Assembly (NCBI GenBank): GCA_964396895.1
Contig: CAYNGJ010000015.1
Coordinates: 33,831-97,830 of the forward strand
From: an uncultured Hydrogenophaga sp.
Lineage (GTDB): Bacteria; Pseudomonadota; Gammaproteobacteria; Burkholderiales; Burkholderiaceae_C
Reading direction: 5' to 3'
DNA: 64,000 nucleotides
The translations under genes were made by a program, and so were the position numbers. Below the pieces are notes generated by a model that saw only the letters and a list, made by a program, of their open reading frames with translations, was not told the DNA's origin and made no database searches. Positions 7,923 to 62,168 of this stretch are shown here, one piece after another (position 1 is the first letter of the stretch; the number at the start of each line of letters is the position of its first letter).

Positions 7923-7944
7923 GGGGAATATCCCCATTTTTTTT
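7923..7944 (+). terminator. weak hairpin plus T8 run (possible intrinsic terminator)
   Basis: The sequence is GGGGAATATCCCC followed by ATTTTTTTT. The stem is only 5 bp, so support is weak. Confidence 0.3.
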
Positions 7945-7948
7945 GAGT

Positions 7949-7990
7949 AAAAAATGCCTCTAGCGCTTTGCTGGCATTGATTCAGTGCTA
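7949..7990 (+). repeat. AT-rich dispersed repeat, copy R1a (left arm of an inverted doublet)
   Basis: AAAAAATGCCTCTAGCGCTTTGCTGGCATTGATTCAGTGCTA. It shares the A5-GCCTCY-AGCGCTT ... AGCTA layout with the other copies. Confidence 0.85.
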
Positions 7991-8006
7991 TATATATTAA
8001 TATTTG

Positions 8007-8048
8007 TAGCTGACTGTTGTTATGCATAAAGCGCTGGATAGTGTTTTT
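8007..8048 (-). repeat. AT-rich dispersed repeat, copy R1b (right arm of an inverted doublet)
   Basis: The reverse complement reads AAAAACACTATCCAGCGCTTTATGCATAACAACAGTCAGCTA. It lies tail-to-tail with R1a across a 16-nt AT spacer. Confidence 0.85.
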
Positions 8049-8517
8049 ATGCTGATTTTCCGGGCTGAGGTGTGCTCGCCCCCATCGCCCCCCCGTAGCA
8101 CTTTTTGTACTTCTTGCCGCTGCTGCAGCGGCACGGGTCGTTGCGGCCCGGCATGGCAGGCTGGTAGGAGACGTCGTCGTCCAGCGTCGTCACGGGGGTG
8201 TCCAGCGCGTGCCTCACGGCGTGCCAGCGGTGTTCCCGTCGTGGGCCGGTGTTGGCCGGGACACATCCACATCCTGCTCGAAGAGCGGGAGCGGCCGTTT
8301 GAAGTGGCTGACGCCGCGCTGTGCGCCCCACCACCAGTGGGTGCGCGCACGCCCGGTGGTGCAACGCGTGTGGCGTGAAGAAGGCCACCGATGACCCTGA
8401 CACACACCGTGAACATGACCGACCGCTTGCCCGACATCCTGACCCACAACCGTGTGCTCCTGCCTCACTCTGACCAACCGGGCAAGTGTGGCGCCAACAC
8501 AGGCCGGCTTGCCGCAC
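8047..8517 (-). CDS. SEC-C motif-containing ORF (N-terminal extent doubtful; possibly decayed)
   Basis: The C-terminus NDPCRCSSGKKYKKCYGG is a SEC-C type zinc motif. The upstream two-thirds of the ORF is Arg/Cys/Gly-rich and does not look protein-like. The stop codon lies inside repeat R1b. Confidence 0.3.
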   Translation of the reverse strand: MRQAGLCWRHTCPVGQSEAGAHGCGSGCRASGRSCSRCVSGSSVAFFTPHALHHRACAHPLVVGRTARRQPLQTAAPALRAGCGCVPANTGPRREHRWHAVRHALDTPVTTLDDDVSYQPAMPGRNDPCRCSSGKKYKKCYGGAMGASTPQPGKSA

Positions 8518-8604
8518 GGCGACATCAGGGACACGGGCTGATCTGTCCGGTTGGCATCAGCGCGCCAGGGGGCATGGCATCAAAATGCGCCTTCCCTCAA
8601 CTGA

Positions 8605-9420
8605 ATGGACACCGCCATGGCGCAAGACCTTTTGGAGTCGTTTGAAAACGGGGTGGCCACACTCACCATGAACCGCCCGGCGGCGCTGAACGCGTTGTCT
8701 CGTCCCATGGTGGCGGCGATGGCGGAGGCCTTGCCCCGACTGGCCCTTGACCCGGCGGTGAGGGCCGTGGTGCTCACCGGCTCAGGCCGGGCGTTTTGCT
8801 CGGGCGGCGACGTGAAGGTATTTGCCCAGTCGGGCGGGCAGGGCAGTGGGGCGGGCATGGCGTTTGACCAACGGGTGGCCGATTTGCGCCAACGCATGGA
8901 GGTGGTGCGCTGGCTGCACGAAATGCCCAAGCCCACCCTGGCGGTGTTGCCCGGTCCAGCGGCGGGTGCGGGCTTGTCGCTGGCGCTGGCCTGTGACCTG
9001 CGCATGGCCTCCACCGACGCCAAGCTTTCCACAGGCTTTGCACGCATCGGGTTGTCGGGGGATTTTGGTGGCAGCTACTTCCTCACCCATTGGGTGGGGG
9101 CTGCGGTGGCGCGCGAGCTGTATTTCACCGGACGGGTGGTGTTGGGTGACGAGGCACTGCGCATGGGCTTGGTGCACCGCGCAGTGGCCGCAGAGCAGTT
9201 GCCACAACTGGCGGGACAGTGGGCACAGGAGCTGGCCGCCATGCCCACCATCGCCATTGGCTACATGAAGAAAAATCTGAACCTGGGCATGCGCGGCAGC
9301 CTGGCCGACGTGTTGGATGCCGAGGCCATCCACATGGTGCGCACCTTCGAAACGCAGGACCACAAAAACGCAGCGCAGGCCTTTGTGGCGAAACAGCGCC
9401 CCCAGTTCAGCGGCAGCTGA
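8605..9420 (+). CDS. enoyl-CoA hydratase/isomerase (crotonase) family protein
   Basis: Supporting motifs are VATLTMNRPAALNAL, VVLTGSGRAFCSGGDVK and PTLAVLPGPAAGAGLSLALACDLRMA. Confidence 0.9.
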   Translation: MDTAMAQDLLESFENGVATLTMNRPAALNALSRPMVAAMAEALPRLALDPAVRAVVLTGSGRAFCSGGDVKVFAQSGGQGSGAGMAFDQRVADLRQRMEVVRWLHEMPKPTLAVLPGPAAGAGLSLALACDLRMASTDAKLSTGFARIGLSGDFGGSYFLTHWVGAAVARELYFTGRVVLGDEALRMGLVHRAVAAEQLPQLAGQWAQELAAMPTIAIGYMKKNLNLGMRGSLADVLDAEAIHMVRTFETQDHKNAAQAFVAKQRPQFSGS

Positions 9421-9453
9421 GTCGTCCGGCCAGGACGGCGGCGGGGCCCATGC

Positions 9454-10152: not shown

Positions 10153-10184
10153 TGTTGTCTCCCTGCGTGGCCGTTGCGATGCGC

Positions 10185-14667: not shown

Positions 14668-14712
14668 CGACCTCACTGCCGCATCTCAGGCGGATGCTTG
14701 CACCGATCCAAT

Positions 14713-14738
14713 AAAAAAGAGGCTCTGGCCTCTTTTTT
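14713..14738. terminator. bidirectional intrinsic terminator
   Basis: AAAAAAGAGGC-TCTG-GCCTCTTTTTT lies between convergent genes. Confidence 0.85.
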
Positions 14739-15333
14739 ATTTCTGCAGGGCGTCAAATCGGACGGTGCGGATGTCTGTTTCCACGCCGTCCACCCGCCTG
14801 GCGCCATTGAAGCGCTTGGTCCAGTACGCGGCGCGCATGTCCTCCACCCGTACACGTGCACCGGAGCGTGGTGCGTGGATGAATTTTCCCTCTCCCACAT
14901 AGATGCCGACGTGACTGAACGCGCGACGCATGGTGTTGAAAAACACCAAGTCACCGGGTCGGAGTTCGTCACGGCTGATGGCCGTGGTGGCCCTGGCCTG
15001 TTCTTCCGCCCGCCGGGGCAGCACCAAGCCAATGGTCTGCTCGTACATGGAGCGCACAAAACCGCTGCAATCAAATCCGACGGATGCATCCGAACCACCC
15101 CTTTTGTAGGGCACTCCCAAAAATCCCATGGCAGTCATGACCAGGTCTGATGCGGTGGAGGCAACGCTGTCCCGCAATTCGGTGGCCCGAACCAGCAGGC
15201 CTCTCTCGGCCAACACCTGCTCCATGGCGGTGTTGGGTGCAGGCGAGGCCAATGTGAGCACGCTCGAACTGGCCAGCAGGCAGGCCAAGAACAGTTTCAG
15301 GGTGGTGCGTAGACGACGATTCAACACATTCAT
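14737..15333 (-). CDS. NlpC/P60 (C40) family peptidoglycan peptidase
   Basis: It has a signal peptide, then YKRGGSDASVGFDCSGFV (catalytic Cys) and HVGIYVGEGKFIHAP (His). Confidence 0.9.
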   Translation of the reverse strand: MNVLNRRLRTTLKLFLACLLASSSVLTLASPAPNTAMEQVLAERGLLVRATELRDSVASTASDLVMTAMGFLGVPYKRGGSDASVGFDCSGFVRSMYEQTIGLVLPRRAEEQARATTAISRDELRPGDLVFFNTMRRAFSHVGIYVGEGKFIHAPRSGARVRVEDMRAAYWTKRFNGARRVDGVETDIRTVRFDALQK

Positions 15334-15474: not shown

Positions 15475-16077
15475 ATGCTGATCGAAGTCACCGAAAGTCA
15501 AGTCGTTTTGATCGACTACCAAAGCAAACTCATGCCCGCCATTCAGGACGGAGCGGCGACTTTGGCCAATGCGCACAAGTTGGCGCAAGCCGCGCGTTGG
15601 CTGGACGTGCCGGTCTGGGGCACCGAACAAAACCCAGAGCGCCTGGGGTTCAATGACGCCGAACTCAAAGCCTTGTGCCGTACCACGTTGCCCAAAATGC
15701 ACTTCAGCGCTGCCGACGCAGGCTTGGTTGACGTGCTGCGCCCGCCGGTCAAGCCTGCATCGGGCAACGCCCGCAGCTTGCCCAAGCATTTGCAAAAGCC
15801 CGCAGTGGCCTCGCCCGAGCGAAACACCATACTGATGGCTGGCTGTGAAGCCCATGTGTGCCTGCTGCAATCCGCCTTGTTGTTGCTGGAGGATGAGTTT
15901 GATGTGTGGGTCGTCACGGATGCCTGTGGTTCCCGCACAGAGCGCAACCGCGATGCAGCCTTCGACCGGTTGGCCGGTGCCGGTGCCGAGTTGGTGACCA
16001 CGGAAATGGTGTTGTTCGAGTGGCTGCGGTCTTGCGAGCACCCCCGTTTCAAGGAAATGCTCTCACTCATCAAGTGA
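15475..16077 (+). CDS. isochorismatase-family hydrolase
   Basis: Supporting motifs are VVLIDYQ and ILMAGCEAHVCLLQSALLL, in the usual family layout. Confidence 0.8.
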   Translation: MLIEVTESQVVLIDYQSKLMPAIQDGAATLANAHKLAQAARWLDVPVWGTEQNPERLGFNDAELKALCRTTLPKMHFSAADAGLVDVLRPPVKPASGNARSLPKHLQKPAVASPERNTILMAGCEAHVCLLQSALLLLEDEFDVWVVTDACGSRTERNRDAAFDRLAGAGAELVTTEMVLFEWLRSCEHPRFKEMLSLIK

Positions 16078-16100
16078 GTTCGCGGGTTGGTTTCGTCAGT

Positions 16101-16140
16101 TAGCAGCAAGCGCTGTTATCCATAATTATGAATTCAATTT
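16101..16140 (-). repeat. degenerate or internally deleted copy (R2) of the AT-rich repeat
   Basis: The reverse complement reads ..GGATAACAGCGCTTGCTGCTA. It keeps the AGCGCTT core and the GCTA end but lacks the middle. Confidence 0.35.
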
Positions 16141-16161
16141 AGGCCTGAGAGGAGACCTCAC

Positions 16162-18057
16162 ATGAGCAACTATGCCGATTTTTTCCGTCGCTCCGTGGAT
16201 GACAGAGATGGGTTCTGGCGCGAGCAGGCCCAATTGATCGACTGGCACAAGCCATTCGAGCAGGTGTGTGACTACACCAACCCCCCGTTTGCCAAGTGGT
16301 TCGCTGGTGGCGAAACCAACCTGTGCCACAACGCCGTGGACCGCCACTTGGCCACGCGCCCCGACCAGAATGCGCTGGTGTTTGTCTCCACTGAGACCAA
16401 CACCGAAATTGCCTACAGTTTTCGCGAACTGCACGCAGAAGTTCAGCGCATGGCAGCCATCCTGAAAGCGCTGGGCGTGGTCAAGGGTGACCGCGTGTTG
16501 ATCTACATGCCCATGATTGCTGAGGCCTGCTTTGCCATGTTGGCCTGCGCGCGCATTGGGGCGGTTCATTCTGTCGTCTTCGGCGGCTTCGCCAGCCATG
16601 CACTGGCCAGTCGCATCGACGATGCCAAACCCACCGTCATCGTCAGTGCCGACGCGGGCATGCGGGGTGGCAAGGTGGTGCCCTACAAGCACCTGTTGGA
16701 CGCAGCCATTGAGCTCGCCGCGCACAAGCCCGCCAAGGTCTTGATGGTCAACCGTGGCCTGGCCGATCTGTCGCCCGTGGATGGTCGAGACGCAGATTAC
16801 GCCAGCCTGCGTCAAACCCATCTGGACACGGTGGTGCCTTGCGAGTGGCTGGACAGCACGCACCCCAGCTACATCCTCTACACCAGCGGCACCACGGGTA
16901 AGCCCAAAGGGGTGCAGCGCGACACCGCTGGCTACGCGGTCGCCCTGGCGGCATCCATGAAGCACATCTACATGGGCGAACCGGGTGAAACCTACTTCAG
17001 CACCAGCGACATCGGCTGGGTGGTCGGACACAGTTACATCATTTATGGACCGCTGATCAACGGCATGGCCACCATCATGTACGAGGGCCTGCCCATCCGC
17101 CCCGACGCGGGTATCTGGTGGAGTTTGGTCGAGAAATACAAAGTCAGCGTCATGTTCAGTGCACCCACAGCCGCCAGGGTGCTGAAGAAGCAAGATCCCG
17201 CCTTCCTGACGAAGTACGACCTGTCCAGCCTGAAAGCGCTCTTTCTCGCAGGCGAGCCGCTGGACGAGCCCACCGCCACCTGGATTTCCGATGCCATCAG
17301 CAAACCCATCATTGACAACTACTGGCAAACGGAAACGGGCTGGCCCATCATGGCCATTTGCAATGGCGTGGAGAAAGCGCCCACCAAATTCGGCTCCCCC
17401 GGCAAAGCGGTTTACGGTTTTGATGTGCGCCTGATCGACGAAGCCACGGGTGAGGAAATCAATGAGCCCAACAAGAAAGGTGTCATTGCTGTGGAGGGGC
17501 CGTTGCCCCCAGGTTGCCTGCAAACCATTTGGGGCGACGATGAGCGCTATGTGAAGACCTATTGGTCCAGCATCCACCAGCGCATGATGTACAGCACCTT
17601 TGACTGGGGTGTGAAAGATGCAGACGGTTACTTTTTCATCTTGGGGCGCACCGACGATGTCATCAACGTTGCTGGACACCGCCTTGGCACCCGCGAGATC
17701 GAGGAAAGCATTTCCAGCCACCCCAACGTCGCTGAGGTGGCTGTGGTGGGCATCGCCGACCAACTCAAGGGTCAAGTGGCGGTGGCATTTGCCGTGCTCA
17801 AAGACCCCAGCGTGGCTGCCAGCGATGCAGACGCGCTGAAATTGGAAGGCGCCATCATGAAGGTGGTGGACGACCAACTGGGCGCGGTGGCCCGTCCGGC
17901 CAGGGTGCGTTTCGTACCGGTGTTGCCCAAAACCCGCAGCGGCAAGCTGTTGCGCCGGGCCATTCAAGCGGTGTGTGAGGGTCGCGACGCCGGCGACCTG
18001 ACCACCATGGAAGACCCCGCCGCCCTTCAGCAAATCAAGGATTCGGTCGTTCGCTGA
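16162..18057 (+). CDS. prpE: propionate--CoA ligase (acyl/acetyl-CoA synthetase family)
   Basis: The 631-aa length and the N-terminus MSNYADFFRRSV..FWREQAQLIDWHKPF..PPFAKWFAGGETNLCHNAVDRHL match the PrpE type. It also has YTSGTTGKPKG and a conserved C-terminal Lys region (PKTRSGKLLRR). Confidence 0.8.
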   Translation: MSNYADFFRRSVDDRDGFWREQAQLIDWHKPFEQVCDYTNPPFAKWFAGGETNLCHNAVDRHLATRPDQNALVFVSTETNTEIAYSFRELHAEVQRMAAILKALGVVKGDRVLIYMPMIAEACFAMLACARIGAVHSVVFGGFASHALASRIDDAKPTVIVSADAGMRGGKVVPYKHLLDAAIELAAHKPAKVLMVNRGLADLSPVDGRDADYASLRQTHLDTVVPCEWLDSTHPSYILYTSGTTGKPKGVQRDTAGYAVALAASMKHIYMGEPGETYFSTSDIGWVVGHSYIIYGPLINGMATIMYEGLPIRPDAGIWWSLVEKYKVSVMFSAPTAARVLKKQDPAFLTKYDLSSLKALFLAGEPLDEPTATWISDAISKPIIDNYWQTETGWPIMAICNGVEKAPTKFGSPGKAVYGFDVRLIDEATGEEINEPNKKGVIAVEGPLPPGCLQTIWGDDERYVKTYWSSIHQRMMYSTFDWGVKDADGYFFILGRTDDVINVAGHRLGTREIEESISSHPNVAEVAVVGIADQLKGQVAVAFAVLKDPSVAASDADALKLEGAIMKVVDDQLGAVARPARVRFVPVLPKTRSGKLLRRAIQAVCEGRDAGDLTTMEDPAALQQIKDSVVR

Positions 18058-18067
18058 ATTTATTGAT

Positions 18068-18122
18068 AAAAATGGCACCTGTCGCTTACGAAATAAGCTT
18101 CAGGTGCTTTTTTATTGGTAGC
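18068..18122 (+). repeat. AT-rich repeat copy R3, folded as a hairpin plus T-run (a likely terminator for prpE)
   Basis: AAAAATGGCACCTGTCGCTTACGAAATAAGCTTCAGGTGCTTTTTTATTGGTAGC. The stem is GCACCTG/CAGGTGC (18075-18107) and T6 follows. Confidence 0.7.
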
Positions 18123-18263
18123 ATTGATGTGTCGTGATTTGCACGGATATGTTTCCCGGTGTGCGTAAGGGTTGCACCGATGTCCCAAGGGTAAGTGCCC
18201 GCATTCGGTCCGCTCGATGAGCGTTATGATGGTTGCTTATATATGTAACCCAGAGTTATCCAT

Positions 18264-21872: not shown

Positions 21873-23132
21873 ATGGCTATCGTAGAAGTCAAAGTTCCAC
21901 AGCTGTCCGAGTCGATTGCGGAAGCGACCTTGCTGCAGTGGAAGAAAAAACCCGGTGATCTGGTGGCGGTCGATGAAATCCTCATCGAAATTGAGACCGA
22001 CAAGGTGGTGCTTGAAGTGCCCGCACCTTCCGCAGGCGTGTTGGGTGAAATCGTTGAGGGCGATGGCAGCACCGTCGCGTCCGAGCAGGTGATTGCCCGC
22101 ATCGACACCGATGGCAAAGGCGCCGTCGCGCCTGCCGCAGCCGCACCCGCTGCAGCAGCGCCCGCTCAAGCGGCGGCTGCAGCCCCCGCTGCTGCTGTCT
22201 CCAAGGCCGGTGTGGCCATGCCCGCAGCGGCCAAGCTGATCGCCGACAACCACCTGGTGGTGGGCTCTGTGCCCGGCACGGGCAAAGACGGCCGTGTGAC
22301 CAAGGGTGACGTGTTGGCCGCTGTGGCCGCCAATGCAACCAGGCCCGCTGCTGCAGCAGTCGCCATCCCCACGGGCGTGCCCACCAAGGCCTTGCCCCAG
22401 GTCACGGCCATTCCCACCCCCGACCTGGGTGACCGACCCCAGCAGCGCGTGGCCATGACACGCCTGCGTGCCCGCGTGGCCGAGCGTTTGCTGCAGTCCC
22501 AGGCCACCAACGCCATCCTGACCACGTTCAACGAGGTGAACATGGCGCCAGTGATGGACATGCGCAAAAAATTCCAGGACAAGTTCGAAAAAGAACACGG
22601 CTGCAAGCTGGGTTTCATGAGCTTTTTCGTGAAAGCCGCCGTGCATGCACTGAAGAAGTACCCCGTGCTGAACGCTTCGGTCGATGGCAACGACATCGTT
22701 TACCACGGCTTCTTCGACATCGGCATTGCCGTGGGCTCGCCACGCGGCTTGGTGGTGCCCATCCTGCGCAATGCCGACCAGATGAGCTTTGCCGACATCG
22801 AAAAGAAAATTGCCGAATACGGTCAGAAGGCCAAAGACGGCAAGTTGGGCATTGAAGAAATGACCGGTGGCACCTTCTCCATCTCCAATGGTGGCACCTT
22901 CGGCTCCATGCTGTCGACCCCCATCATCAACCCACCGCAGTCGGCCATTTTGGGCGTGCACGCCACCAAAGACCGTGCGGTGGTGGAGAACGGGCAGATC
23001 GTGATTCGTCCCATCAACTACCTGGCCATGAGCTACGACCACCGCATCATCGACGGTCGCGAAGCCGTGCTGGGCCTGGTGGCCATGAAGGAGGCGTTGG
23101 AAGATCCCTCGCGCCTGCTGTTCGGGATTTGA
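21873..23132 (+). CDS. sucB: dihydrolipoyllysine-residue succinyltransferase (E2o)
   Basis: It has a lipoyl domain ([15 protein letters not shown]), an Ala/Pro linker and the catalytic motif [13 protein letters not shown]. Confidence 0.97.
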
Positions 23133-23135
23133 TGC

Positions 23136-23187
23136 TTTTTAGGCATCTGGCGCTTACTGTTAAACAATAGTCAGCTACATTTTATTG
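23136..23187 (+). repeat. AT-rich repeat copy R4 (sucB-lpdA spacer)
   Basis: TTTTTAGGCATCTGGCGCTTACTGTTAAACAATAGTCAGCTACATTTTATTG. Confidence 0.75.
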
Positions 23188-23241
23188 CATATTTCCAGGC
23201 CGCCTTCAGCAATGGGGGTGGCCTGTTTTCAAGGTAATCAC

Positions 23242-36470: not shown

Positions 36471-37133
36471 ATGGCCCAAAGTCTCGATCTCGAAGAACAG
36501 GAACAGCTTGACCAGATCAAGCACTTCTGGAAACGCTACGGCAACCTCATCACCTGGGTGCTGCTGGCCGCCAGCGTGTCCTTTGCTGCGTGGAATGGCT
36601 GGCAGTTCTGGCAGCACAAGCAGGCCTCGGGCGCAGCCGTCCTGTTCGATGAAATCGAAAGGGCCGTGGCGGACAAGGACGCCACCCGCATGGAGCGCAC
36701 CCTGACTGACATGAAGGCGCAATTTGGCAGCACGGTCTATGCCCAGCAGGGGGCTTTGCTGGCTGCGCATGGCCTGTCCGCCGCAGGCGATGCCCCCAAA
36801 GCCCGGCAGGCCCTGGAATGGGCCGCCGGGCAAAACAAGGACGAAGGCCTGCAGGCGATTGCCCGCCTGCGTCTGGCGGGTTTGCTGATGGAAAATGGCA
36901 CCCCCGAAGAGGCCAAAAAGTCGCTGGAGGCGACCATGCCCACTGCCTTCGAGGGCCTGCTGGCGGATCGCCAGGGCGACCTGCACCTGCGGGCCGGTCA
37001 GTCTGACCAGGCCCGTCAAGCCTACCTCAAGGCCTACCAACTGCTGGCCGACACCACGGAGTACCGTCGCCTGGTGGAAATCAAGCTCAACGCACTGGGC
37101 GTGGACCCCACACCGGCCGCCGCCAAGTCATGA
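36471..37133 (+). CDS. YfgM-family membrane-anchored TPR-like protein
   Basis: The N-terminus EEQEQLDQIKHFWKRYGNLITWVLLAA is followed by a TM segment. It occupies the conserved position between hisS and bamB. Confidence 0.8.
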   Translation: MAQSLDLEEQEQLDQIKHFWKRYGNLITWVLLAASVSFAAWNGWQFWQHKQASGAAVLFDEIERAVADKDATRMERTLTDMKAQFGSTVYAQQGALLAAHGLSAAGDAPKARQALEWAAGQNKDEGLQAIARLRLAGLLMENGTPEEAKKSLEATMPTAFEGLLADRQGDLHLRAGQSDQARQAYLKAYQLLADTTEYRRLVEIKLNALGVDPTPAAAKS

Positions 37134-38284
37134 CCCATCATAATTTGAGGAAAAATATGCCTCTAGCGCTTATATATAAAGGCTTTTCAGCTATTGTTAT
37201 TGCAAGCGCCTTGGTGGCATGCTCCTCATCGGGCAACCGACCCAAGCCAGCCGAGCTGACCCCTTTGCTGCCCATGATGTCGGTGCGCCAGGTTTGGGTG
37301 AACCCGGTGGGCGCCAGTGCCACCCCCATGACGCTCTCGGTGAACGGTGACCGCGTGTCCGTCGCCTCCGGCAACGGTACCGTGGCCCAGGTGGATGTGA
37401 ACACCGGTGCCGATGTCTGGCGCGTGGTCTTGGGCACGCCGCTGTCTGCGGGCGTCGGTTCTGATGGCCACATGGCCGCAGTCGTCAGCCAACGCAACGA
37501 CCTGATTGCGCTGGTGGCGGGCAAAGAAGTGTGGCGCCAGCGCTTGCCCTCGGCCGCCTACACCGCGCCATTGGTGGCCGGGCAACGGGTGTTTGTGCTG
37601 GGCGCAGACCGCTCTGTCACCGCGTTTGACGGCAACTCAGGCGCCCGTTTGTGGACCCAGTCCCGCACTGGCGAACCGCTGGTGCTTCGCCAGTCTGGCG
37701 TGCTGCTCGCGGTGGGCGACACACTGGTGGCGGGTTTGGGTGGCCGCATGGTTGGATTCAACCCCAACAACGGCAACACCCGCTGGGACGTGCAGCTCGC
37801 CGTGCCCAAAGGTGCCAATGACATCGAGCGCATGGTGGATTTGGTGGGCCCCATCAGCCGCGCTGGCAATGAGGTCTGCGCGCGCGCTTTCCAGACCGCA
37901 ATTGCCTGCGTCGACGCCCAGCGTGGTCGCCTGAAATGGACACAAGCCGCCGATGGCCGCAGTGGCCTGGGCGGAGACGAGCGCTGGCTGTTTGGTGCTG
38001 AGTCTGATGGGCGAGTCGTCGCTTGGCAGCGCGACACTGGCCAAAAGGCTTGGACATACTCTGGTCTGCTGCACCGTAACGCCCTCAGCCCCTTGCTGCT
38101 GGGCCGCTCACTGGCCACTGCAGACGGGTTCGGTTTTATTCACCTGCTGTCCCGGGAAGACGGCAGTCCCATGGCCCGCCTGACCACCGATGGTTCCCCC
38201 ATCCACACCGCCCCTGTGCTGGCCGGTGACACCCTGCTGGCCCTCACGCAAAATGGCAATATGTTTGCCTGGCGTCCACAATAA
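37130..38284 (+). CDS. bamB: outer membrane protein assembly factor BamB
   Basis: It has a lipoprotein signal peptide (..IASALVACSS) and PQQ-like beta-propeller repeats. The start is ATG 37130 (ATGA overlap with yfgM) or ATG 37157. Confidence 0.92.
   Translation: MTHHNLRKNMPLALIYKGFSAIVIASALVACSSSGNRPKPAELTPLLPMMSVRQVWVNPVGASATPMTLSVNGDRVSVASGNGTVAQVDVNTGADVWRVVLGTPLSAGVGSDGHMAAVVSQRNDLIALVAGKEVWRQRLPSAAYTAPLVAGQRVFVLGADRSVTAFDGNSGARLWTQSRTGEPLVLRQSGVLLAVGDTLVAGLGGRMVGFNPNNGNTRWDVQLAVPKGANDIERMVDLVGPISRAGNEVCARAFQTAIACVDAQRGRLKWTQAADGRSGLGGDERWLFGAESDGRVVAWQRDTGQKAWTYSGLLHRNALSPLLLGRSLATADGFGFIHLLSREDGSPMARLTTDGSPIHTAPVLAGDTLLALTQNGNMFAWRPQ
37151..37202 (+). repeat. AT-rich repeat copy R5, lying inside the bamB signal-peptide coding region
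   Basis: AAAAATATGCCTCTAGCGCTTATATATAAAGGCTTTTCAGCTATTGTTATTG is translated as (K)NMPLALIYKGFSAIVI. Confidence 0.85.
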
Positions 38285-39661: not shown

Positions 39662-39734
39662 AGGTGGGGCCAACCGCAGCCCGCGAGGCTGTGGTATGGT
39701 CCTATCCCCATCACTTTTGAACACGGAACATATC

Positions 39735-43843: not shown

Positions 43844-46425
<2,582 letters not shown>

Positions 46426-46433
46426 TTTTTAAC

Positions 46434-46483
46434 AAAAAGTGCACTCAGCGCTTTATTTATAAGCATTGTTAGCTACTTATTTT
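46434..46483 (+). repeat. AT-rich repeat copy R6 (purA-PRTase spacer)
   Basis: AAAAAGTGCACTCAGCGCTTTATTTATAAGCATTGTTAGCTACTTATTTT runs directly into the GGAG RBS of the next gene. Confidence 0.85.
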
Positions 46484-46493
46484 GGAGTAAGTC

Positions 46494-51997: not shown

Positions 51998-52627
51998 TCA
52001 GATCCAACCCAGGGCGCCCAACCCTGCGCCGACCGCCAGCATCCACAACAGGTGAATCCGGGTGCGCCAGACCAGCACTGCCACCGCAAGGCTCAGCGCC
52101 CAGGCGGCCCAGGGCTGTCGGCCCAGCCAGGCGGGCAGGGCGGTCACGGTGTCGGTGGTCACCGCCGGGGTGGACAGCAGCCAGCCCGTGGCCAGCATCA
52201 GCGCCACCACCACCGGTGCCAGCCCTTGTTTGAACGCACGCACCCACAGCCGCTGCTGGTGACGGTGCACCCAGCGCGTGGCCCCATAGGTGAGCAGGGA
52301 AGAGGGCAGCAGTATGGCCACCATGGACACCACCACCCCGGCCAACGCCAGGGGCCAGGCGTGCCAGCCTGCCGCCACGCCACCCCCCGCATTCAGCCCC
52401 ACCTGCCACCCCAGCAAGGCCACAAACAGCACGTTGGGGCCGGGCGCGGCCTGGGCCAGGGCAATGCTGCTGGAAAACTGCAGTTCGCTCAACCAGTGCC
52501 GCTCGTCGTGCAAAAACCGGTGCATGTCGGGCACGGTGGCGATGGCGCCACCAATGGAGAGCAGGGACAACGTGGCAAAGTGCAGGAACAGCGCCACCCA
52601 GTCGGCCAGACCAAGTGAGGTGATCAT
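51998..52627 (-). CDS. chromate transporter (CHR) family protein, half-size
   Basis: It is a polytopic membrane protein. ALAQAAPGPNVLFVALLG is CHR-type. Confidence 0.8.
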   Translation of the reverse strand: MITSLGLADWVALFLHFATLSLLSIGGAIATVPDMHRFLHDERHWLSELQFSSSIALAQAAPGPNVLFVALLGWQVGLNAGGGVAAGWHAWPLALAGVVVSMVAILLPSSLLTYGATRWVHRHQQRLWVRAFKQGLAPVVVALMLATGWLLSTPAVTTDTVTALPAWLGRQPWAAWALSLAVAVLVWRTRIHLLWMLAVGAGLGALGWI

Positions 52628-53265
52628 GGGGATGGGAGGGATTGGTGGGATGGTGTGGCCGCAGGCCGCGCCTGACGGCTGATGGCCAGCGCCGCCACAG
52701 CGGTCACCAGCGGGGCCAGTCCCAGCAGCACCCAGGCCAGCGGCCAGCGCAGCACGCCCACCATCACAAACCCCAGCAACACCAGTACCGCGCAGCCGGT
52801 GGTGCCCATGGGGTTGTGGCGCAGTGGGCCCAGCATTTTCAGGCCAGTGCCGGCGATCAGCCCTGCGGCCACGGCACCCAGACCGCGAAGCGCGCCGTGC
52901 ACGGCCGGTGCCTCAACCCAGGCACTGACCAGCACCACCAGCAGCAGCATGATGCACAAGGGCAGGGTGAGCATGCCCGCTAGGGCGGCCATGGCGCCAC
53001 CCGCACCGAAAAAGCGCCCCCCCAGCATCAGCGACATGTTGACCACGTTGGGCCCGGGCATGATCTGCGCCACCGCCCAATCTTCCAAAAACTGCTCGTT
53101 GCTGAGCCAGCGGCGCTTTTCCACCATCTCGCGCTGGACCAGCGCCACCACACCGCCAAAGCCTTGCAGAGCCAGCCAGGAAAAGGCCCAGAACAACGCG
53201 GTTTTGGAGGCAGGTTGGGCCAAGTTTGGCACGCCAGTCATGGGCGTTGTGGCATTCAAATGCAT
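52624..53265 (-). CDS. chromate transporter (CHR) family protein, half-size
   Basis: Supporting sequence is FGGVVALVQREMVEKRRWLSNEQFLEDWAVAQIMPGPNVVN. It overlaps its partner gene by 4 nt. Confidence 0.85.
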   Translation of the reverse strand: MHLNATTPMTGVPNLAQPASKTALFWAFSWLALQGFGGVVALVQREMVEKRRWLSNEQFLEDWAVAQIMPGPNVVNMSLMLGGRFFGAGGAMAALAGMLTLPLCIMLLLVVLVSAWVEAPAVHGALRGLGAVAAGLIAGTGLKMLGPLRHNPMGTTGCAVLVLLGFVMVGVLRWPLAWVLLGLAPLVTAVAALAISRQARPAATPSHQSLPSP

Positions 53266-53318
53266 AGCTTAAAAGTGAATACAGTCATGCGCTATGTGGC
53301 AATTTGTTGTTAATTTTT
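53265..53318 (-). repeat. AT-rich repeat copy R7, exactly filling the SDR-stop to chrA-start spacer
   Basis: The reverse complement reads AAAAATTAACAACAAATTGCCACATAGCGCATGACTGTATTCACTTTTAAGCTA. Confidence 0.7.
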
Positions 53319-54061
53319 CACACCGTCATACCACCGGCCACTTCCAGCACCGCACCATTGACGTAGCTTGCCTCGTCGCTGGCCAAAAAGGCGTAAACGT
53401 TGGCGATTTCCTCGGGTCGGCCCAGGCGCTTGAGTGGCACGCGGTGCTCCATTTCGGCAATCACTTTGTCGGGAATGGTGCTGAGGATGGGGGTGGCCAC
53501 AAAGCCTGGGGCCACGGCGTTCACGCGGATGCCTTTGGGACCCAGTTCGCGACTCCAGGTTTTGGTGAAACCGATCACGCCAAACTTGGTGGCCGCGTAA
53601 TTGGTTTGCCCGAAGTTGCCATAAATGCCGACCACCGAACTCGCGTTCAGGATGACGCCACTGCCTTGGGCCACCATGGTGTCGGCCACCGCTTGCGTGC
53701 AGTGAAAAACGCCGCGCAGGTTGACGTCAATGACCTTGTCAAACTGCTCCAGTGTCATCTTTTGCAGCCGTGCATCCTGCGTGATGCCGGCGTTGTTCAC
53801 CAGCACGTCAATGCGGCCAAACCGCTCTTTCACCTGGGCGACCACGGCGTCCACCATGTCCCGTTGGGTCACATCCATCACGAAGCCGATGGACTCCGCA
53901 CCCAGCGCCTTGCAACGGACCACGGCATCGTCCACGGCGGACTGCTTCATGTCGCACACCACGACCACGGCGCCTTCGGCGGCAAATTTCATGGCGGTGG
54001 CCATGCCAATGCCCTGGGCAGCGCCGGTGATGATGCTGACCTTGTTGTTCAATCGTTTCAT
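53318..54061 (-). CDS. SDR family oxidoreductase (FabG/3-oxoacyl reductase-like)
   Basis: It has [12 protein letters not shown] and YAATK catalytic motifs. Confidence 0.9.
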
Positions 54062-54981: not shown

Positions 54982-57633
54982 TCAGGGCAACACCTGCATT
55001 GACTGGGTCCACTGCGTGGGCTGCAGCTGCAAGGCGCGGTATTGCACCTTGGCCCAGGTGGTGGACATGTCGCGGTAGCGCGGTGACCACACGTTGCCGC
55101 TCTGGCCCGTTTGGTAGATGAATGCGCTGTTGTCCAGGTCGGCCAAGTCGTACACCGCGCGCAGCGATGCGGCGTGCCGGTTGGCGTAGGGCTGTGCCGG
55201 GTTGTCCAGCTGGAATTGACCCACGTTGACCGTGAAGGTGTCGCCCCCAGTGGGCACACTGACCTCGAACGCCGGTGCCAGCGCCTTGACGTTACTGAAC
55301 GGTTGGTGTTTAGACACCGCGGGGTGGGCTTGCCCCCAGCGCCATTGATCCACACGGGGGCCGTGCCGGGTCTGCAATTCCGTCAATGCAGTGCTCAGCG
55401 CCCGTGAGGACGCTTCGGCACAACCGCCCTCCCCGCACCAAAAGCCATCGTTGCGGGCCAACGCGTCTTCCATGGCGGTGCGGAAATGGCGCTTGCCGTA
55501 GAGGGACTTGGTCCGTGCCTCGCCCAGTGTGCGGACCAACGCTTGCCGTGTGAACACGTCCACCCATGCGGTGAAGATCAGGGGTGCGGCGTGGTCGGCC
55601 CGCATCACGCCGTCAAAGTGGGCCAAGGCCTGTTGCGCGGCGACGGCCAAGGGGTGGTCGGAAGGGGTGTTTTGCAACACCGGCAACAGCTTCAAAGTGG
55701 CCAGGGAGAGCTCATCGGCTTGCAAGGCCTGCATGGACTGCCGCGTGTGGCGGGGGGTGGCCGCCAGCAGGGCCTCAATGCGCTGCTGGCGGTGGGGGTG
55801 CGTCCAGTCCTGGGTGATGAAGTGCGGGTAGTCGGAGCCGTGGATGCGCTGGTTGGCGGTGGCCAGCCAGCCCCGCTGCTGCGCTTGGGCAGAGGCCGCC
55901 CGCTGGGCCGCCGCCACTGCCGGGCTGGTGCCGGGGGTGAATGCCGGTGTTGACGGTTCGCCCAGGCGGGTTTCGGGTGTGTCGGCGTAGGGTATCCAGC
56001 CCTGCCAGTCGTAACGCGCATCCCAGCCGGGCGACGGCGCCACACCCCGAATGTCATTGTCCGGGGCGCGAACGGGCACTTTGCCTGCGGCCTTGTAGGC
56101 CACGTGGCCCTGCACATCGGCCACCACCACGTTCTGCATGGGCGAGTGGTAATGGCGGTACGCGGCGAGCAGCTCATCCACACTGCGGGCGCGGTTGCCT
56201 TCCAGCCCGGCCAGCACCGTGTGGTTGTCGGCGTCCAGCGCGCTCCAGCGCAATGCCAACACGAACTGGCGGGTGTCCAGCAGTTCGGCGTGACTGGATT
56301 GGGCATCGCTGAGCACCGGGCCGTGGCGCGTGGTGCGCACCGTGTGGTGGACGTCGCCTTGCCCTTTGACGCGGATGGTTTCCTCGCGGGTGTCAAAGTC
56401 GGCCCAGGCGGCTGGCTGGCCGGGGGGCGCGGGCACGCGGTACTGCGCGGGGTTGGCGGGGTTGACTTGTTCCAGATACAGGTCTTGCACGTCAGGGGCG
56501 GTGTTGGTGAAGCCCCAGGCCAGGTGGGCATTGCGCCCCAGCACCACAAAAGGCAGGCCCGGCAGGGTGGCGCCCGTGACGTTCAGTTCGCCCTGCCCCG
56601 CCGCCGTCGGTGCCTGCAAACGTGCAAAGTACCAGACGGCAGGGGCGCTCAGGCCCAAGTGGGGGTCATTGGCCAACAATGGCCGCCCACTGTGGGTGCG
56701 CGAGCCCGCCACCACCCAGTTGTTGGAGCCCTTGCCATCCACCTCGCCCAGGGTGTGGGCCCAGTCGTTGACCGACTGCGCCAGTGTGGCGGACGCGGTG
56801 CGCGTCAATTTTGCATAAAAAGTGCCTCCAGCGCTTTCCCTTATTGGGTTGTCAGCTGCACTTTTTTTATTGAATTTGTCCGACTGATCGGCATACACGC
56901 CCAGGCCCCGGTACAGCTGGGCCAAGTCGGCGGTGGCGGCAGGCAGCTCGCCGGGGTAAGCCGGGAACAGTTGCCACAGGCGCTGGGTGTCCAACACCTG
57001 CAAGGCGGTGAGCCGCGCGAACTCGTTGCCCCAGTTGCCGCCCAGGTCCAGCGCCATCATGAGCGCCCAGCCCATGGCGTCGATGGGGGTCCAAAATTGG
57101 CCTTTTCGGGCGGCGCTGCGCGGGTCAATGCCCAGTGCCAGGAACTCGGGGGTGAGTGACTGGTGGCTGTGCGCCATGAAGGTGTTCACGCCATCGGCGT
57201 AGGCTTGCAGGGCGGCCTGGGCATGGGTAGGCAACCCTTGCCACTGGCGCTCGGCGGCCTGGGGCAAGCCGAGCGTGCGCAGCAGCTTGTCGGTGGGCAG
57301 GGTGGCAGGGCCCAGCACTTCCGACAACGTGCCATGCATCACCCGGCGGTTGAACTCCAGTTGCCACGCCCGTTCCTGCGCGTGCACCATGCCCAGGGTT
57401 TTGAAGGCATCGAGCGGGTTCTGGGCCAGGATGTGCGTGACGTCGGCGGGGTCGCGCCTGACCTGCACCGCTGCGCTCAAGCCCGGCAGATGCGCAACGC
57501 CCTGCATTTGGGGCAGGCTGCGCAGGGCATACACGGCGGTGGTGGCACCGGCGATCAGCGCGGCCGCGCCCAACAGGCCCATCACGGCCAGGGAAATTCG
57601 GGTCAGTCGGGTCAATCGGGTCAATCGGTTCAT
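54982..57633 (-). CDS. penicillin acylase family Ntn-hydrolase (AHL/beta-lactam acylase type)
   Basis: It has a signal peptide, an alpha-subunit region, a spacer, then G-SNNWVV (nucleophile Ser at residue 303 by my count) and ANDPHL. Confidence 0.92.
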   Translation of the reverse strand: MNRLTRLTRLTRISLAVMGLLGAAALIAGATTAVYALRSLPQMQGVAHLPGLSAAVQVRRDPADVTHILAQNPLDAFKTLGMVHAQERAWQLEFNRRVMHGTLSEVLGPATLPTDKLLRTLGLPQAAERQWQGLPTHAQAALQAYADGVNTFMAHSHQSLTPEFLALGIDPRSAARKGQFWTPIDAMGWALMMALDLGGNWGNEFARLTALQVLDTQRLWQLFPAYPGELPAATADLAQLYRGLGVYADQSDKFNKKSAADNPIRESAGGTFYAKLTRTASATLAQSVNDWAHTLGEVDGKGSNNWVVAGSRTHSGRPLLANDPHLGLSAPAVWYFARLQAPTAAGQGELNVTGATLPGLPFVVLGRNAHLAWGFTNTAPDVQDLYLEQVNPANPAQYRVPAPPGQPAAWADFDTREETIRVKGQGDVHHTVRTTRHGPVLSDAQSSHAELLDTRQFVLALRWSALDADNHTVLAGLEGNRARSVDELLAAYRHYHSPMQNVVVADVQGHVAYKAAGKVPVRAPDNDIRGVAPSPGWDARYDWQGWIPYADTPETRLGEPSTPAFTPGTSPAVAAAQRAASAQAQQRGWLATANQRIHGSDYPHFITQDWTHPHRQQRIEALLAATPRHTRQSMQALQADELSLATLKLLPVLQNTPSDHPLAVAAQQALAHFDGVMRADHAAPLIFTAWVDVFTRQALVRTLGEARTKSLYGKRHFRTAMEDALARNDGFWCGEGGCAEASSRALSTALTELQTRHGPRVDQWRWGQAHPAVSKHQPFSNVKALAPAFEVSVPTGGDTFTVNVGQFQLDNPAQPYANRHAASLRAVYDLADLDNSAFIYQTGQSGNVWSPRYRDMSTTWAKVQYRALQLQPTQWTQSMQVLP
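56817..56868 (+). repeat. AT-rich repeat copy R9, translated in frame (antisense orientation) inside the acylase spacer peptide
   Basis: AAAAAGTGCCTCCAGCGCTTTCCCTTATTGGGTTGTCAGCTGCACTTTTTTT lies within the AT-rich patch 56808-56880, which encodes DKFNKKSAADNPIRESAGGTFYAKL. Confidence 0.85.
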
Positions 57634-60528: not shown

Positions 60529-60637
60529 CGAGTCCCAGGTTAATGCCAAATGGCTCGGGCCGGGTCCGCACCAAGCCGTACCATCTGATGATAGCCACCG
60601 GCACTGCGCCGCGTTCAACCGCCCTGCCCTGCACCCC

Positions 60638-61279
60638 ATGTACTGCCCTGCCCACTTCGAAGAAACCCGATTGCCCGTGCTGCACGACCTGGTGCACCAA
60701 CACCCCCTGGCCACGCTGGTCACCCAGGGGGCCAATGGCCTGTCGGCCGAGCACGTGCCTTTGCTGCTGCGGCCCGGCACCGGTGGCCAGGACCTCCTGG
60801 TGGGCCATGTGGCGCGCGGCAACCCATTGGCACAGGCCCACCTGGCCGAGGTCTTGGTGGTGTTCCAAGGCCCGCAGTGTTATGTGTCGCCCAACTGGTA
60901 CGCCAGCAAACCAGACAGTGGTCAAGTGGTGCCCACTTGGAACTACGCAGTGGTGCACGCGAAAGGCACCCTGCGCACCCTGGACGATGCGGGCTGGAAG
61001 CGCACGCTGCTGAACGAACTCACCCAAACCCACGAACAGGCGCAGCCCCATCCCTGGGCGGTGGACGATGCGCCAGAGCCCTACATCGAGCGTTTGCTGG
61101 GCGCCATTGTGGGCATTGAAATTCAGGTCCATGCCCTGAACGGAAAATGGAAGGTCAGCCAGAACCAGCCCGCAGCCAACCGAGTCACGGTGGTGGCCGG
61201 GTTGCAGGGCGCAGGCGGCGCGCAGCAACAGGCCATGGCGGAGCTGGTGCAGGCCTTTGGCCAAGCCCCCGCGCGGTGA
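60638..61279 (+). CDS. FMN-binding negative transcriptional regulator (PaiB family)
   Basis: Starts at ATG 60638. Supporting sequence is MYCPAHFEE..HPLATLVT..CYVSPNWY..VPTWNY and KVSQNQ. Confidence 0.85.
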   Translation: MYCPAHFEETRLPVLHDLVHQHPLATLVTQGANGLSAEHVPLLLRPGTGGQDLLVGHVARGNPLAQAHLAEVLVVFQGPQCYVSPNWYASKPDSGQVVPTWNYAVVHAKGTLRTLDDAGWKRTLLNELTQTHEQAQPHPWAVDDAPEPYIERLLGAIVGIEIQVHALNGKWKVSQNQPAANRVTVVAGLQGAGGAQQQAMAELVQAFGQAPAR

Positions 61280-62036
61280 GTGCCGCTTGAACACCGATCC
61301 GTTTTTTTACTTGGTGGCCATCCCAGCCGTGCTCTTGCTGGGGTTGAGCAAAAGTGGCTTTGGCGCGGGCTTTGGTTCGCTGGCGGTGCCCATGTTGGCA
61401 CTGGCCATCCCGGTGCCGCAGGCCGCCGCGATCATTTTGCCTCTGCTGTTTGTCATGGACGTGCTCACGCTCAAGGCCTTTCGCAAAGAGCTGGACTGGG
61501 CGCTGTTCCGCTTTCTGCTGCCCTGGGGCTTGCTGGGCATTGCGGTGGGGGCTGCGCTGTTCAAAACACTGGACAGCCACACGGTGGCCGGTCTGGTGGG
61601 CCTGTTCGCCTGGGGGTTTCTGGCGCAGCGCAAGCTGTTTCCGCCCAAGGCCGACGCACCGCCACCGGGCAAGTTCTGGGGGGCGGTCATGAGCACCACC
61701 TCGGGCTTCACCAGCTTTGTGTCGCACTCGGGCGGGCCGCCCATCAACGCCTACGTCATCCCGCTGAAGCTGGCACCCACCGTGTTCACCGGCACGCTGG
61801 CGGCGTTTTTTTTCGTCATCAACCTGAGCAAGTGGCTGCCTTACGCCTGGCTGGGGCTGTTCGATGCCAGCAACCTGGCCACCTCAGCCGCCCTGCTGCC
61901 GTTTGCGCCCCTGGGTGTGTGGGCCGGGGTGAAGGTGGCGCGGCGCATCAGCATGGTGTGGTTTTACCGGCTGGTGGACTGGGGCATGTTCCTCACCGGC
62001 GCCAAGCTGGTGTGGGATGGTTTTGTGGCGCGTTGA
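61257..62036 (+). CDS. TauE/SafE family sulfite-exporter-like membrane protein
   Basis: It is polytopic, with LLLGLSKSGFGAGFGSLAVPMLAL and GGPPINAYVIP. The start is uncertain, and it overlaps the paiB end. Confidence 0.8.
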   Translation: MAKPPRGECRLNTDPFFYLVAIPAVLLLGLSKSGFGAGFGSLAVPMLALAIPVPQAAAIILPLLFVMDVLTLKAFRKELDWALFRFLLPWGLLGIAVGAALFKTLDSHTVAGLVGLFAWGFLAQRKLFPPKADAPPPGKFWGAVMSTTSGFTSFVSHSGGPPINAYVIPLKLAPTVFTGTLAAFFFVINLSKWLPYAWLGLFDASNLATSAALLPFAPLGVWAGVKVARRISMVWFYRLVDWGMFLTGAKLVWDGFVAR

Positions 62037-62050
62037 TCAACAATGTGAAC

Positions 62051-62092
62051 AAAATAGCCACCCAGCTATTGATGGATATGAATTTGTAGCTA
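62051..62092 (+). repeat. AT-rich repeat copy R10a (left arm of the second inverted doublet; diverged core)
   Basis: AAAATAGCCACCCAGCTATTGATGGATATGAATTTGTAGCTA. Confidence 0.65.
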
Positions 62093-62106
62093 TAAAATTA
62101 ATTGTA

Positions 62107-62149
62107 TAGCTGACCATTCAATGACCATAAGCGCCAGAGGCTGATTTTT
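62107..62149 (-). repeat. AT-rich repeat copy R10b (right arm of the second inverted doublet)
   Basis: The reverse complement reads AAAAATCAGCCTCTGGCGCTTATGGTCATTGAATGGTCAGCTA. It is separated from R10a by a 14-nt AT spacer. Confidence 0.85.
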
Positions 62150-62168
62150 CGTATTTTTTGACGGGACA

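Follow-up and report, generated by a model that had tools for sequence, protein, structure and literature searches.

Short AT-rich repeats scattered through a 64,000-nt stretch of a Hydrogenophaga contig (the window; all coordinates are window positions) belong to a family of ~69-bp elements that recurs across the Comamonadaceae. We lean towards regarding the window patches as old, vertically inherited and partly decayed copies of an interspersed palindromic element, similar in kind to the repetitive extragenic palindromic (REP/BIME) or enterobacterial repetitive intergenic consensus (ERIC) repeats. That the family is genuine, dispersed, short and non-coding, as an earlier note on this DNA had proposed, is established by an excess of its pattern over shuffled sequence and by recovery with an independent profile. 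The sequences quoted in that note lie where it placed them. The pattern RGCGCTT-N16-YAGCTR occurs six times in the window and not once in 100 dinucleotide-preserving shuffles, and AGCGCTT-N15-24-AGCTA finds three matches where none is expected. The gap between the core hexamers is constant at 16 nt in all six pattern matches. The seven best copies align almost without gaps over ~75-80 nt in an nhmmer profile built from them (the window profile), and the same seven are recovered, with E values from 1.5e-8 to 0.057, by a profile built solely from copies in other genomes and then run on the window alone (Table 1).

Beyond the seven profile-backed copies, local alignment to the family consensus, scored against shuffled sequence, identifies real diverged copies at 18068 (z ~6.8) and 62051 (z ~5.2); minus-strand candidates at 16101 (z ~3.1) and 53265-53318 (z ~2.6) are marginal, and one at 54841 scores no higher than shuffles and is unsupported. 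The statement that nearly every AT-rich patch is a copy was too broad: with patches defined as 40-nt windows of GC <= 35%, ~8 of 25 are copies, though these include six of the eight longest. The TTTTGA lead-in is the element's own AT-rich 5' arm, which often holds the upstream stop codon.

A discrete palindromic unit

The element comprises an AT-rich arm, GCCTC, the hairpin CYAGCGCTT-N7-AAGCGCTRG, CAGCTA and an AT-rich tail, with the consensus aaaTTtcAAGtcAAATtG-GCCTC-[YAGCGCTT-aTCCAtc-AAGCGCTR]-GCAGCTA-TcAAattaatAGCa. Its boundaries are sharp: information content is zero outside positions -18 to +50, counted from the G of GCCTC, so the repeat is a discrete unit of ~69 bp. The 35-bp core reads GCCTCYAGCGCTT-N7-AAGCGCTRGCAGCTA, and the window-type half site is GCGCTT-N16-CAGCTA. 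At its centre, a 9-bp stem closes a 7-nt loop (-17.7 kcal/mol, z -4.0), and the element as a whole has ~45% GC against 65-72% in host genes.

Copies in other genomes are far better preserved than those in the window. The latter retain GCCTCY-RGCGCTT and YAGCTA at the correct distance, the second stem arm having decayed, and window singlets fold no better than shuffles. The canonical hairpin runs into CAGCTATCAAAT and has no U-tract, so it lacks what defines an intrinsic terminator; a sequence scan found neither terminator-like nor promoter sites at the copies at 37.1 kb and 46.4 kb, and A/T runs flank only the derived 18068 copy and the 7931-8065 doublet. Two further readings of the unit were tried and set aside: a small open reading frame (ORF), as frames differ among copies and most contain stops, and long-range pairing of the 5' arm with the 3' tail or a second hairpin in fixed register, for which there is no mutual-information support.

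The 7-nt loop occurs in both orientations, ATCCATC and GATGGAT, throughout the family. Its orientation differs even between orthologous copies in the loci fetched from other genomes (L-numbers), as at L124 5464-5528 versus L131 5457-5523 and L047 versus L079, which suggests hairpin-mediated loop inversion. The commonest stem-plus-loop reads TTATCCAT(C/A), a resemblance, perhaps fortuitous, to a DnaA box (TTATCCACA). The main core polymorphism, at positions 5 and 27, changes CTAG to CCAG or CTGG in either arm; very-short-patch repair bias against CTAG would be expected to produce just this change, which may mimic weak covariation. The apparent covariation of Y5 with R27 (TAG..CTA versus CAG..CTG) was rejected as weak, with 21 compensatory against 72 mismatched cells, and may be no more than such a mutation bias.

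Distribution and placement

A scan of public collections with GCCTCYRGCGCTT-N16-YAGCTA matched at least 120 genomic stretches, plus 16 viral or prophage contigs. Among the matches listed, almost all are from Comamonadaceae—Acidovorax, Paracidovorax, Simplicispira, Giesbergeria, Comamonas, Ottowia, Albidiferax/Rhodoferax and Hydrogenophaga—and many genomes of this family probably carry hundreds of copies. The profile gives 258 matches in the fetched loci (~1.1 Mb). Density is ~1 copy per 6 kb in three Acidovorax-like loci fetched via earP, and 63 kb of Acidovorax, P. citrulli (Paracidovorax) and Ramlibacter loci chosen via rlmI contain no copy. No element match was found in GenBank phages, and only five records match among PLSDB plasmids. 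Element-like sequences with ~82% identity over 71-78% of the unit occur on a Citrobacter freundii plasmid (NZ_CP154589.1, 42338-42386) and an uncultured-bacterium plasmid (LC623924.1, 36556-36609), and may be DNA captured from Comamonadaceae.

Placement is strongly biased. Some 94% of 240 copies from other genomes are intergenic, and where the spacer type was classified (86 copies) the flanking genes are co-directional in 63 cases, convergent in 19 and divergent in only four, a strong depletion of divergent spacers. Element orientation is unbiased, with 28 copies aligned with both flanking genes and 35 opposed to them. Neighboring genes are unrelated: the biggest cluster among 438 flanking ORFs has four members, with nothing transposase-like among them. 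The earlier note had suggested counting singlets and doublets; inverted doublets (<300 nt apart) prove exceptional, at one of 79 neighbor pairs, with the two convergent doublets of the window as exceptions, and tandem arrangement was never seen. At one locus (L063), a probable gpsA gene has its start codon and opening residues (MKIIVLGAGAWG) within the tail TAGCTATGAAAATCATAG of a minus-strand copy, a further case of a copy providing a gene start, like that of bamB in the window.

Mobility and inheritance

The presence/absence polymorphism that the earlier note had proposed seeking at orthologous intergenic sites does occur between genera, where filled and empty spacers differ by clean lengths of ~65-80 nt (L049 versus L040; L024 versus the window and L142). 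The element nonetheless has no terminal inverted repeats: its ends, aaaTTtcAAG... and ...aatAGCatt, are not complementary, and its sole inverted repeat is internal. Nor was a target-site duplication detected, as no 3-8-nt k-mer is in excess across the boundaries of 133 near-full-length copies, apart from an excess due to conserved internal AG motifs. On both counts the element is not a classical miniature inverted-repeat transposable element (MITE), and of the earlier description as "REP/MITE-like" it is the REP-like distribution that stands. That note had also raised a flanking transposase gene, of the REP-associated tyrosine transposase (RAYT) type or another. No six-frame match to the RAYT motif HxH...[FYW]W[DEQ]...Y[IVLM]xxNP was found in fetched loci totalling 1.05 Mb, a weak negative because loci rather than whole genomes were scanned and RAYTs are single-copy.

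Copies are also inherited in place. The window copies between purA and hpt and between yfgM and bamB are found at the same sites in relatives, ~78% identical in DNA (L140-L147). The peptide encoded by the copy within a penicillin-acylase gene, DQSDKFNKKSAADNPIRESAGGTFYAKL, recurs in homologues down to ~61% protein identity, and the Polaromonas DNA copy still matches with E 9e-4; Hydrogenophaga acylase homologues are shorter at the copy site. Three Acidovorax-like genomes (found via earP) have several intergenic copy positions in common. The earlier note had set conservation at orthologous positions across distant genera against a dispersed or mobile family. This is in part what is seen, at purA-hpt, yfgM-bamB, the acylase and the shared sites of the Acidovorax-like genomes, and taken together with the dispersal it makes the family both dispersed and anciently retained. 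In this genome we are dealing with old, constrained, inherited copies and not with an active mobile family.

Copies within genes

For about 6% of copies, the surrounding frame is open and the composition on both sides is of coding type. The cases checked are in rlmI, earP (two sites), ygfZ, pgeF/yfiH, selO, a uvrA-like gene (two sites) and the window acylase gene. Several frames of the element are open, and four of its translations, three in forward frames and one in a reverse frame, turn up repeatedly in actual proteins. The copy in rlmI spans the full length of the element (profile positions 5-71, E 5e-16), and the protein segment it encodes aligns without gaps to E. coli RlmI, to 120 of 120 close homologues and to a 74%-identical homologue with the native helix; in distant RlmI outgroups the native helix, FFxxRIAAAVARRxxL, is followed by a longer linker. 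This codon-for-codon replacement of ~60 nt may have come about by insertion with a compensating deletion or by patch replacement in one step. In Acidovorax sp. SCN 68-22 (L097), a UvrA-like ATPase ORF, open for ~1850 codons, holds two in-frame copies that encode ...QTIAAGTDAASARGQLDLKN... and ...VIASNTDGISAGGKKYLKN.... A match in folC (L044, E 1e-5) coincides with the native motif FAxIESARGxISLTYFE, also found in E. coli FolC, and was therefore treated as a chance or partial match.

The composition of these copies sets them apart from the genes that carry them. In Acidovorax (L070), the 23-codon rlmI copy has a GC content at third codon positions (GC3) of 0.30 and the remainder of the gene 0.94; in Rhodoferax (L149) the two values are 0.30 and 0.83. 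Where no other copies lie nearby, as in three genomes, the same peptide is encoded with a GC3 of 0.91-0.96 and the profile match is lost. At earP, the profile still picks up both sites in four genomes with 71-79% protein identity; GC3 at these sites is 0.32-0.62 against 0.79-0.90, one site in one genome having ameliorated. For the acylase copy, the values are 0.44 against 0.84 in the window and 0.37 against 0.82 in Polaromonas. Between the window and its relative L140, identity in the purA-hpt copy is 76-79% (26-31% GC), compared with 49-65% at 4-fold degenerate sites of the flanking genes (~80% GC) and 23-74% in the ten other spacers of the block. Orthologous intergenic copies paired from other genomes keep their core blocks but are as different in arms and loops as unrelated copies.

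The stem does not change in the way that an RNA helix would. In it, non-Watson-Crick cells (382) far outnumber compensatory ones (29), and G.U (77) does not exceed A.C (109). No copy matched Rfam 15 at the gathering threshold in the window and 18 loci, one canonical copy giving nothing better than E ~2, and no tRNA or tmRNA was found. AT-rich, near-consensus cores within genes, together with the near absence of compensatory change, argue for recognition of DNA sequence over RNA structure or neutral junk. Taken together, the data are better accounted for by a protein that recognises the DNA, as double strand or hairpin, or by homogenisation of the copies, than by RNA folding or neutral decay.

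Possible mechanism and alternatives

On the reading we lean towards, the element, itself encoding nothing, would have spread by inserting into short spacers, either 3' of genes or inside operons, and on rare occasions would have come to lie in frame within a gene, with a host-encoded trans-acting protein recognising the palindromic core. Once inserted, the core would be held by sequence-specific constraint on DNA rather than by RNA folding, and copies would persist at their sites across genera, fading to host GC only where the family, and presumably the partner protein too, is lost. Local co-option may have followed, candidates being the BamB signal peptide, the acylase spacer region, the hpt leader and the terminator-like hairpins at 18068 and in the 7931-8065 doublet. 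What the data show directly is the family itself, its boundaries, taxonomic range and positional bias, the filled and empty sites, retention at orthologous sites, the GC3 contrast and the lack of covariation; the mode of insertion, the partner protein and any benefit to the host are what we infer from these patterns.

Several observations weigh against this account. The rlmI copy replaces a helix without length change relative to E. coli and the outgroups, which is not simple insertion, and each earP copy lengthens the protein by just ~6 residues compared with Pseudomonas EarP. Beside the copies in the fetched loci, neither a transposase nor any other partner gene was found, a weak negative given that material; terminal repeats or target duplications that might reveal a mechanism are absent as well. 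The constraint could instead reflect gene conversion among copies or repeated insertion at hot spots, and conservation at purA-hpt and bamB may derive in part from the ribosome-binding site and from coding. In all strong copies of the window lineage, moreover, the 3' arm of the hairpin has decayed, so that any function here cannot be the hairpin itself.

An alternative that we rate as unlikely is a DNA-level signal under active renewal by conversion, homing or biased uptake, overwriting sequence without change in length; this would explain the replacement of the RlmI helix, the AT-rich near-consensus copies in rlmI, earP and the acylase, across genera, and the fading of the intragenic copy in those sampled lineages that have no others. 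Maintenance by drive as an uptake-sequence-like "self" mark, renewed through biased recombination or gene conversion able to overwrite sequence, we regard as very unlikely, even though intragenic copies are neutral or near-neutral in length, near-consensus copies stand at orthologous sites across genera, lineages without other copies also have an ameliorated intragenic copy (at the few loci sampled), both orientations occur under a family-wide consensus, and inverted pairs lie between convergent genes, as with the Neisseria DNA uptake sequence (DUS). A 69-bp motif is far bigger than any known uptake sequence, ~94% of copies are intergenic with a density of ~1 per 6-10 kb at best, and intergenic copies differ from empty sites by clean, insertion-like lengths. 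It is likewise improbable that the copies are purely selfish, dead MITE- or REP-like debris, neutral relics of earlier transposition with neither function nor maintenance. Such debris would account for window copies that are degenerate (only four reach E < 1e-3 with the family profile) and have lost the hairpin, for decay without compensation, for lineages with no copies at the sampled loci, and for the existence of both filled and empty sites. Neutral AT-rich DNA, however, should drift to host composition, yet across genera GC3 stays at 0.30-0.6 in the rlmI, earP and acylase copies, against 0.8-0.94; conservation of the purA-hpt copy exceeds that of 4-fold degenerate sites and of every other spacer in the block, and cores persist while loops and arms are scrambled, albeit in a small sample.

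Roles at the RNA level—termination, stabilisation or processing—have been proposed for enterobacterial REP and ERIC repeats. A hairpin that terminates or stabilises upstream transcripts, or a processing or leader element in operons, would suit the siting of copies 3' of genes and inside operons, with few in divergent promoter regions, as well as the stability of the canonical hairpin, the resemblance of the 7931-8068 doublet and the 18068 copy to terminators, and the occurrence in some tails of the ribosome-binding site of the next gene. We nevertheless think it quite unlikely as an account of the family, given that compensatory covariation is nearly absent and G.U is not in excess on either strand, that both orientations relative to transcription are used equally, and that copies are retained in coding regions, sense and antisense, where a terminator would do harm. 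The canonical hairpin also lacks a U-tract, singlets in the window show no structure, the scan detects neither a terminator nor a promoter consensus at 37.1 or 46.4 kb, and Rfam offers no match. Least probable by far is a promoter or operator of one regulon, such as an alternative-sigma promoter with GCGCTT as -35 and CAGCTA as -10. The fixed 16-nt spacing of two conserved hexamers in the window copies, and the several copies just upstream of start codons, might suggest one; but copies are rarest in divergent spacers (four of 86 classified), convergent doublets would fire into each other, the neighboring genes are functionally unrelated and both orientations relative to downstream genes occur, no sigma-70-like match is seen, and the "spacer" is, in canonical copies, the second hairpin arm. 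Sigma-54 and sigma-70 promoters were rejected directly, spacing and hexamers being unfit and the scan empty at the copies.

Relation to known repeats

Like REP, BIME and REPIN sequences, the element is short, non-coding, an imperfect palindrome and probably present in hundreds of copies; it shares with them a preference for gene 3' ends and operons, avoidance of promoters, and the lack of terminal inverted repeats or target duplication. It is, as REP repeats are defined, a short imperfect palindrome repeated in extragenic DNA. REPINs also persist long-term by vertical descent (bioRxiv 10.1101/2021.07.10.451892; PMC3116915), as the element does. The REP super-families defined by their GTAG or CGTC head (PMC3733652, where Comamonadaceae genera are unmentioned) differ in that the element has no such head on either strand, its stem being flanked by GCCTC (5') and GCAGCTA (3'). 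It is ~69 bp long with AT-rich arms, whereas REP repeats are 20-40 bp and GC-rich, and its copies are mostly singlets, unlike the inverted doublets of REPINs, and also occur in frame inside genes.

The resemblance to ERIC/IRU repeats of the Enterobacteriaceae and Vibrio is also close: these too are imperfect palindromes of intermediate size, lie in transcribed spacers in either orientation, are conserved across a bacterial family and present or absent at orthologous sites, and have no known transposase. ERIC is set apart, by description rather than by alignment, through its length (~127 bp) and different sequence, and to our knowledge has not been reported as maintained inside coding sequences. 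Rickettsia palindromic elements (RPE) are palindromic, lie in frame in conserved genes and are translated, as here; they insert 30-50 residues, however, whereas the element adds none in rlmI and ~6 per copy in earP, and sequence and host clade differ. Among small repeats, BRE alone was found on record for Comamonadaceae. It was described from Bordetella and from Comamonadaceae (Polaromonas, Delftia and Acidovorax) by Hot et al. (2011, PMC3110155), where it is mostly intergenic with some copies in ORFs, ~90 bp long, 69% GC, in tandem arrays and limited to at most 29 copies per genome (PMC3110155). Although both are small, mainly intergenic repeats of Comamonadaceae with some copies within ORFs, identity with BRE was rejected: its supplement (List S1 file) contains neither AGCGCTT nor AAGCGCT nor CAGCTA, and size, GC content and tandem arrangement differ. 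The uptake signal sequences (USS) of Pasteurellaceae and the DUS of Neisseriaceae share with the element a family-wide motif in both orientations, orthologous positions that include genes without length change, and inverted pairs between convergent genes. They have, however, 9-12-bp cores (~30 bp with flanks) at ~1 per kb, many in coding DNA, against 69 bp with a hairpin, at most ~1 per 6 kb, ~94% intergenic placement and insertion-like length differences.

No description of the element was found in Rfam 15 or, by its core words or as a Comamonadaceae or Acidovorax repeat, in the searchable literature. In behavior it is closest to REP/BIME and ERIC, with the translatability of RPE; its unusual property is that full-length copies are maintained in conserved genes without length change. 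The Comamonadaceae include major environmental, wastewater and plant-pathogenic bacteria, and annotation of their genomes stands to gain, as the element explains odd AT-rich spacers, misplaced starts (bamB) and low-GC3 islands in genes. Presence or absence of copies is a ready phylogenetic and strain-typing marker. Conserved AT-rich and ameliorated copies in sister lineages provide a natural experiment on how repeats are maintained, whether by host function, partner enzyme or drive. In the BamB signal peptide, the acylase spacer region, RlmI and EarP, moreover, repeat DNA has been turned into protein sequence.

Copies in the window

Every intergenic copy in the window starts at, or within ~20 nt of, the upstream stop codon and usually fills the spacer, and both doublets lie between convergent genes (Table 1).

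Table 1. Copies of the element in the window, with their scores and the corresponding matches to the profile built from other genomes.
Copy	Position	Strand	Score	Independent-profile match
Left arm of first convergent doublet	7931..8008	+	nhmmer E 2.4e-12	7941-7974 (+), E 1.1e-5
Right arm of first doublet	7989..8065	-	nhmmer E 1.5e-11; exact pattern 8007-8035	7999-8038 (-), E 0.057
Marginal, strongly diverged	16098..16157	-	consensus score 24 vs shuffle mean 14.9, sd 2.9	
Diverged	18054..18123	+	consensus score 31 vs shuffle mean 14.1, sd 2.5, max 24	
sucB-lpdA spacer	23122..23195	+	nhmmer E 2.3e-12; pattern 23149-23177	23125-23177 (+), E 0.015
yfgM-bamB, best preserved	37134..37204	+	nhmmer window-profile E 1.9e-13	37142-37201 (+), E 1.5e-8
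purA-hpt, fills entire spacer	46416..46493	+	nhmmer E 3e-13; pattern 46447-46475	46446-46490 (+), E 1.1e-3
Marginal, diverged	53258..53317	-	window profile E 0.03; score 23 vs shuffle mean 15.3, sd 3.0	
Intragenic, penicillin acylase	56799..56874	+	nhmmer window-profile E 6e-15	56807-56857 (+), E 1.3e-5
Diverged, left arm of second convergent doublet	62042..62109	+	window profile E 3e-3; consensus score 31 vs shuffle mean 15.5, sd 3.0	
Right arm of second doublet	62090..62167	-	nhmmer E 2.7e-13; pattern 62107-62135	62097-62152 (-), E 5.9e-6

In the first doublet, the left arm begins at the stop codon (7919-7921) of ORF 7589-7921 (+), and the A-run of the right arm overlaps the TAA stop (8047-8049) of a SEC-C-motif gene (8047-8517, -; Pfam SEC-C). 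The pair (7929-8068) folds into a single long hairpin of -41.7 kcal/mol (z -4.3) between an A-run and a T-run and so resembles a bidirectional terminator. The strongly diverged copy at 16 kb, which nhmmer missed when the independent profile was run on the window, retains the 3' arm and loop (ATGGATAACAGCGCTTGCTGCTA) but no longer has the 5' arm; its neighbors are gene 15475-16077 and an acyl/acetyl-CoA synthetase gene (16162-18057). Directly 3' of the stop of the latter, an AMP-binding synthetase gene by Pfam, is the 18-kb copy, which aligns to the consensus over its full length (window profile E 0.018). It has evolved a separate stem, GCACCTG...CAGGTGC, with a T-run behind it, which gives it the look of an intrinsic terminator.

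The sucB-lpdA copy starts at the sucB stop (23130-23132), and lpdA, as read from the sequence, apparently starts at ~23242. A SucA RNA motif (RF01070; 18840-18921, +; 82.5 bits, E 3.5e-14) directly upstream of sucA (18927-21803) identifies the surrounding operon as that of 2-oxoglutarate dehydrogenase. The best-preserved copy overlaps the stop (37131-37133) of a yfgM-like gene (Pfam TPR_21, with BamB next to it) and, read in one frame, supplies BamB with its start and lipoprotein signal peptide (M..MPLALIYKGFSAIVIASALVAC), an arrangement that is the same in relatives (L141; orthologous copy in L140-L147). Between purA and hpt, both assigned by Pfam, the copy extends from the purA stop (46423-46425) to the hpt ATG at 46494, and its tail holds the hpt ribosome-binding site (GGAG).

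The marginal copy at 53 kb, for which no counterpart was detected in relatives, lies between a short-chain dehydrogenase gene (53318-54061, -) and a chromate-transporter gene (52624-53265, -). The acylase copy is in frame and antisense within gene 54982-57633 (-; Pfam Penicil_amidase, 6e-198), where it encodes 28 residues. These fall in a variable stretch that precedes the GSNN motif by a few dozen residues and would correspond to the alpha/beta spacer region of penicillin-acylase-type Ntn hydrolases. In the second doublet, the left arm lies just 3' of a TauE-family gene that ends at 62036 (identified from L001), and the right arm directly follows an integrase-like gene (62169-62891, -; 240 aa; Pfam Arm-DNA-bind_3/DUF6352).

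Beyond 62 kb (62169-64000), GC falls to 0.54-0.59, the first gene there being the integrase-like fragment, and the second doublet may lie at the border of an integrated island; past the end of the window, L001 carries heavy-metal ATPase, HMA and ECF sigma genes. The AT-rich patch at 14705-14746 is outside the family and forms a classical hairpin of the bidirectional terminator type, AAAAAAGAGGCTCTGGCCTCTTTTTTATT. In another Comamonadaceae locus (L133), two matches to the xanthine riboswitch (NMT1, RF03054) lie ~80 nt apart, at 5061-5120 (-) and 5199-5258 (+). The GC-rich der-hfq spacer of the window (39661-39716) is 67% identical to that of L140 and contains a conserved hairpin, CCGCAGCC...GGCTGTGG, followed by TATGGTCC; it may serve to regulate hfq and has no relation to the repeats.

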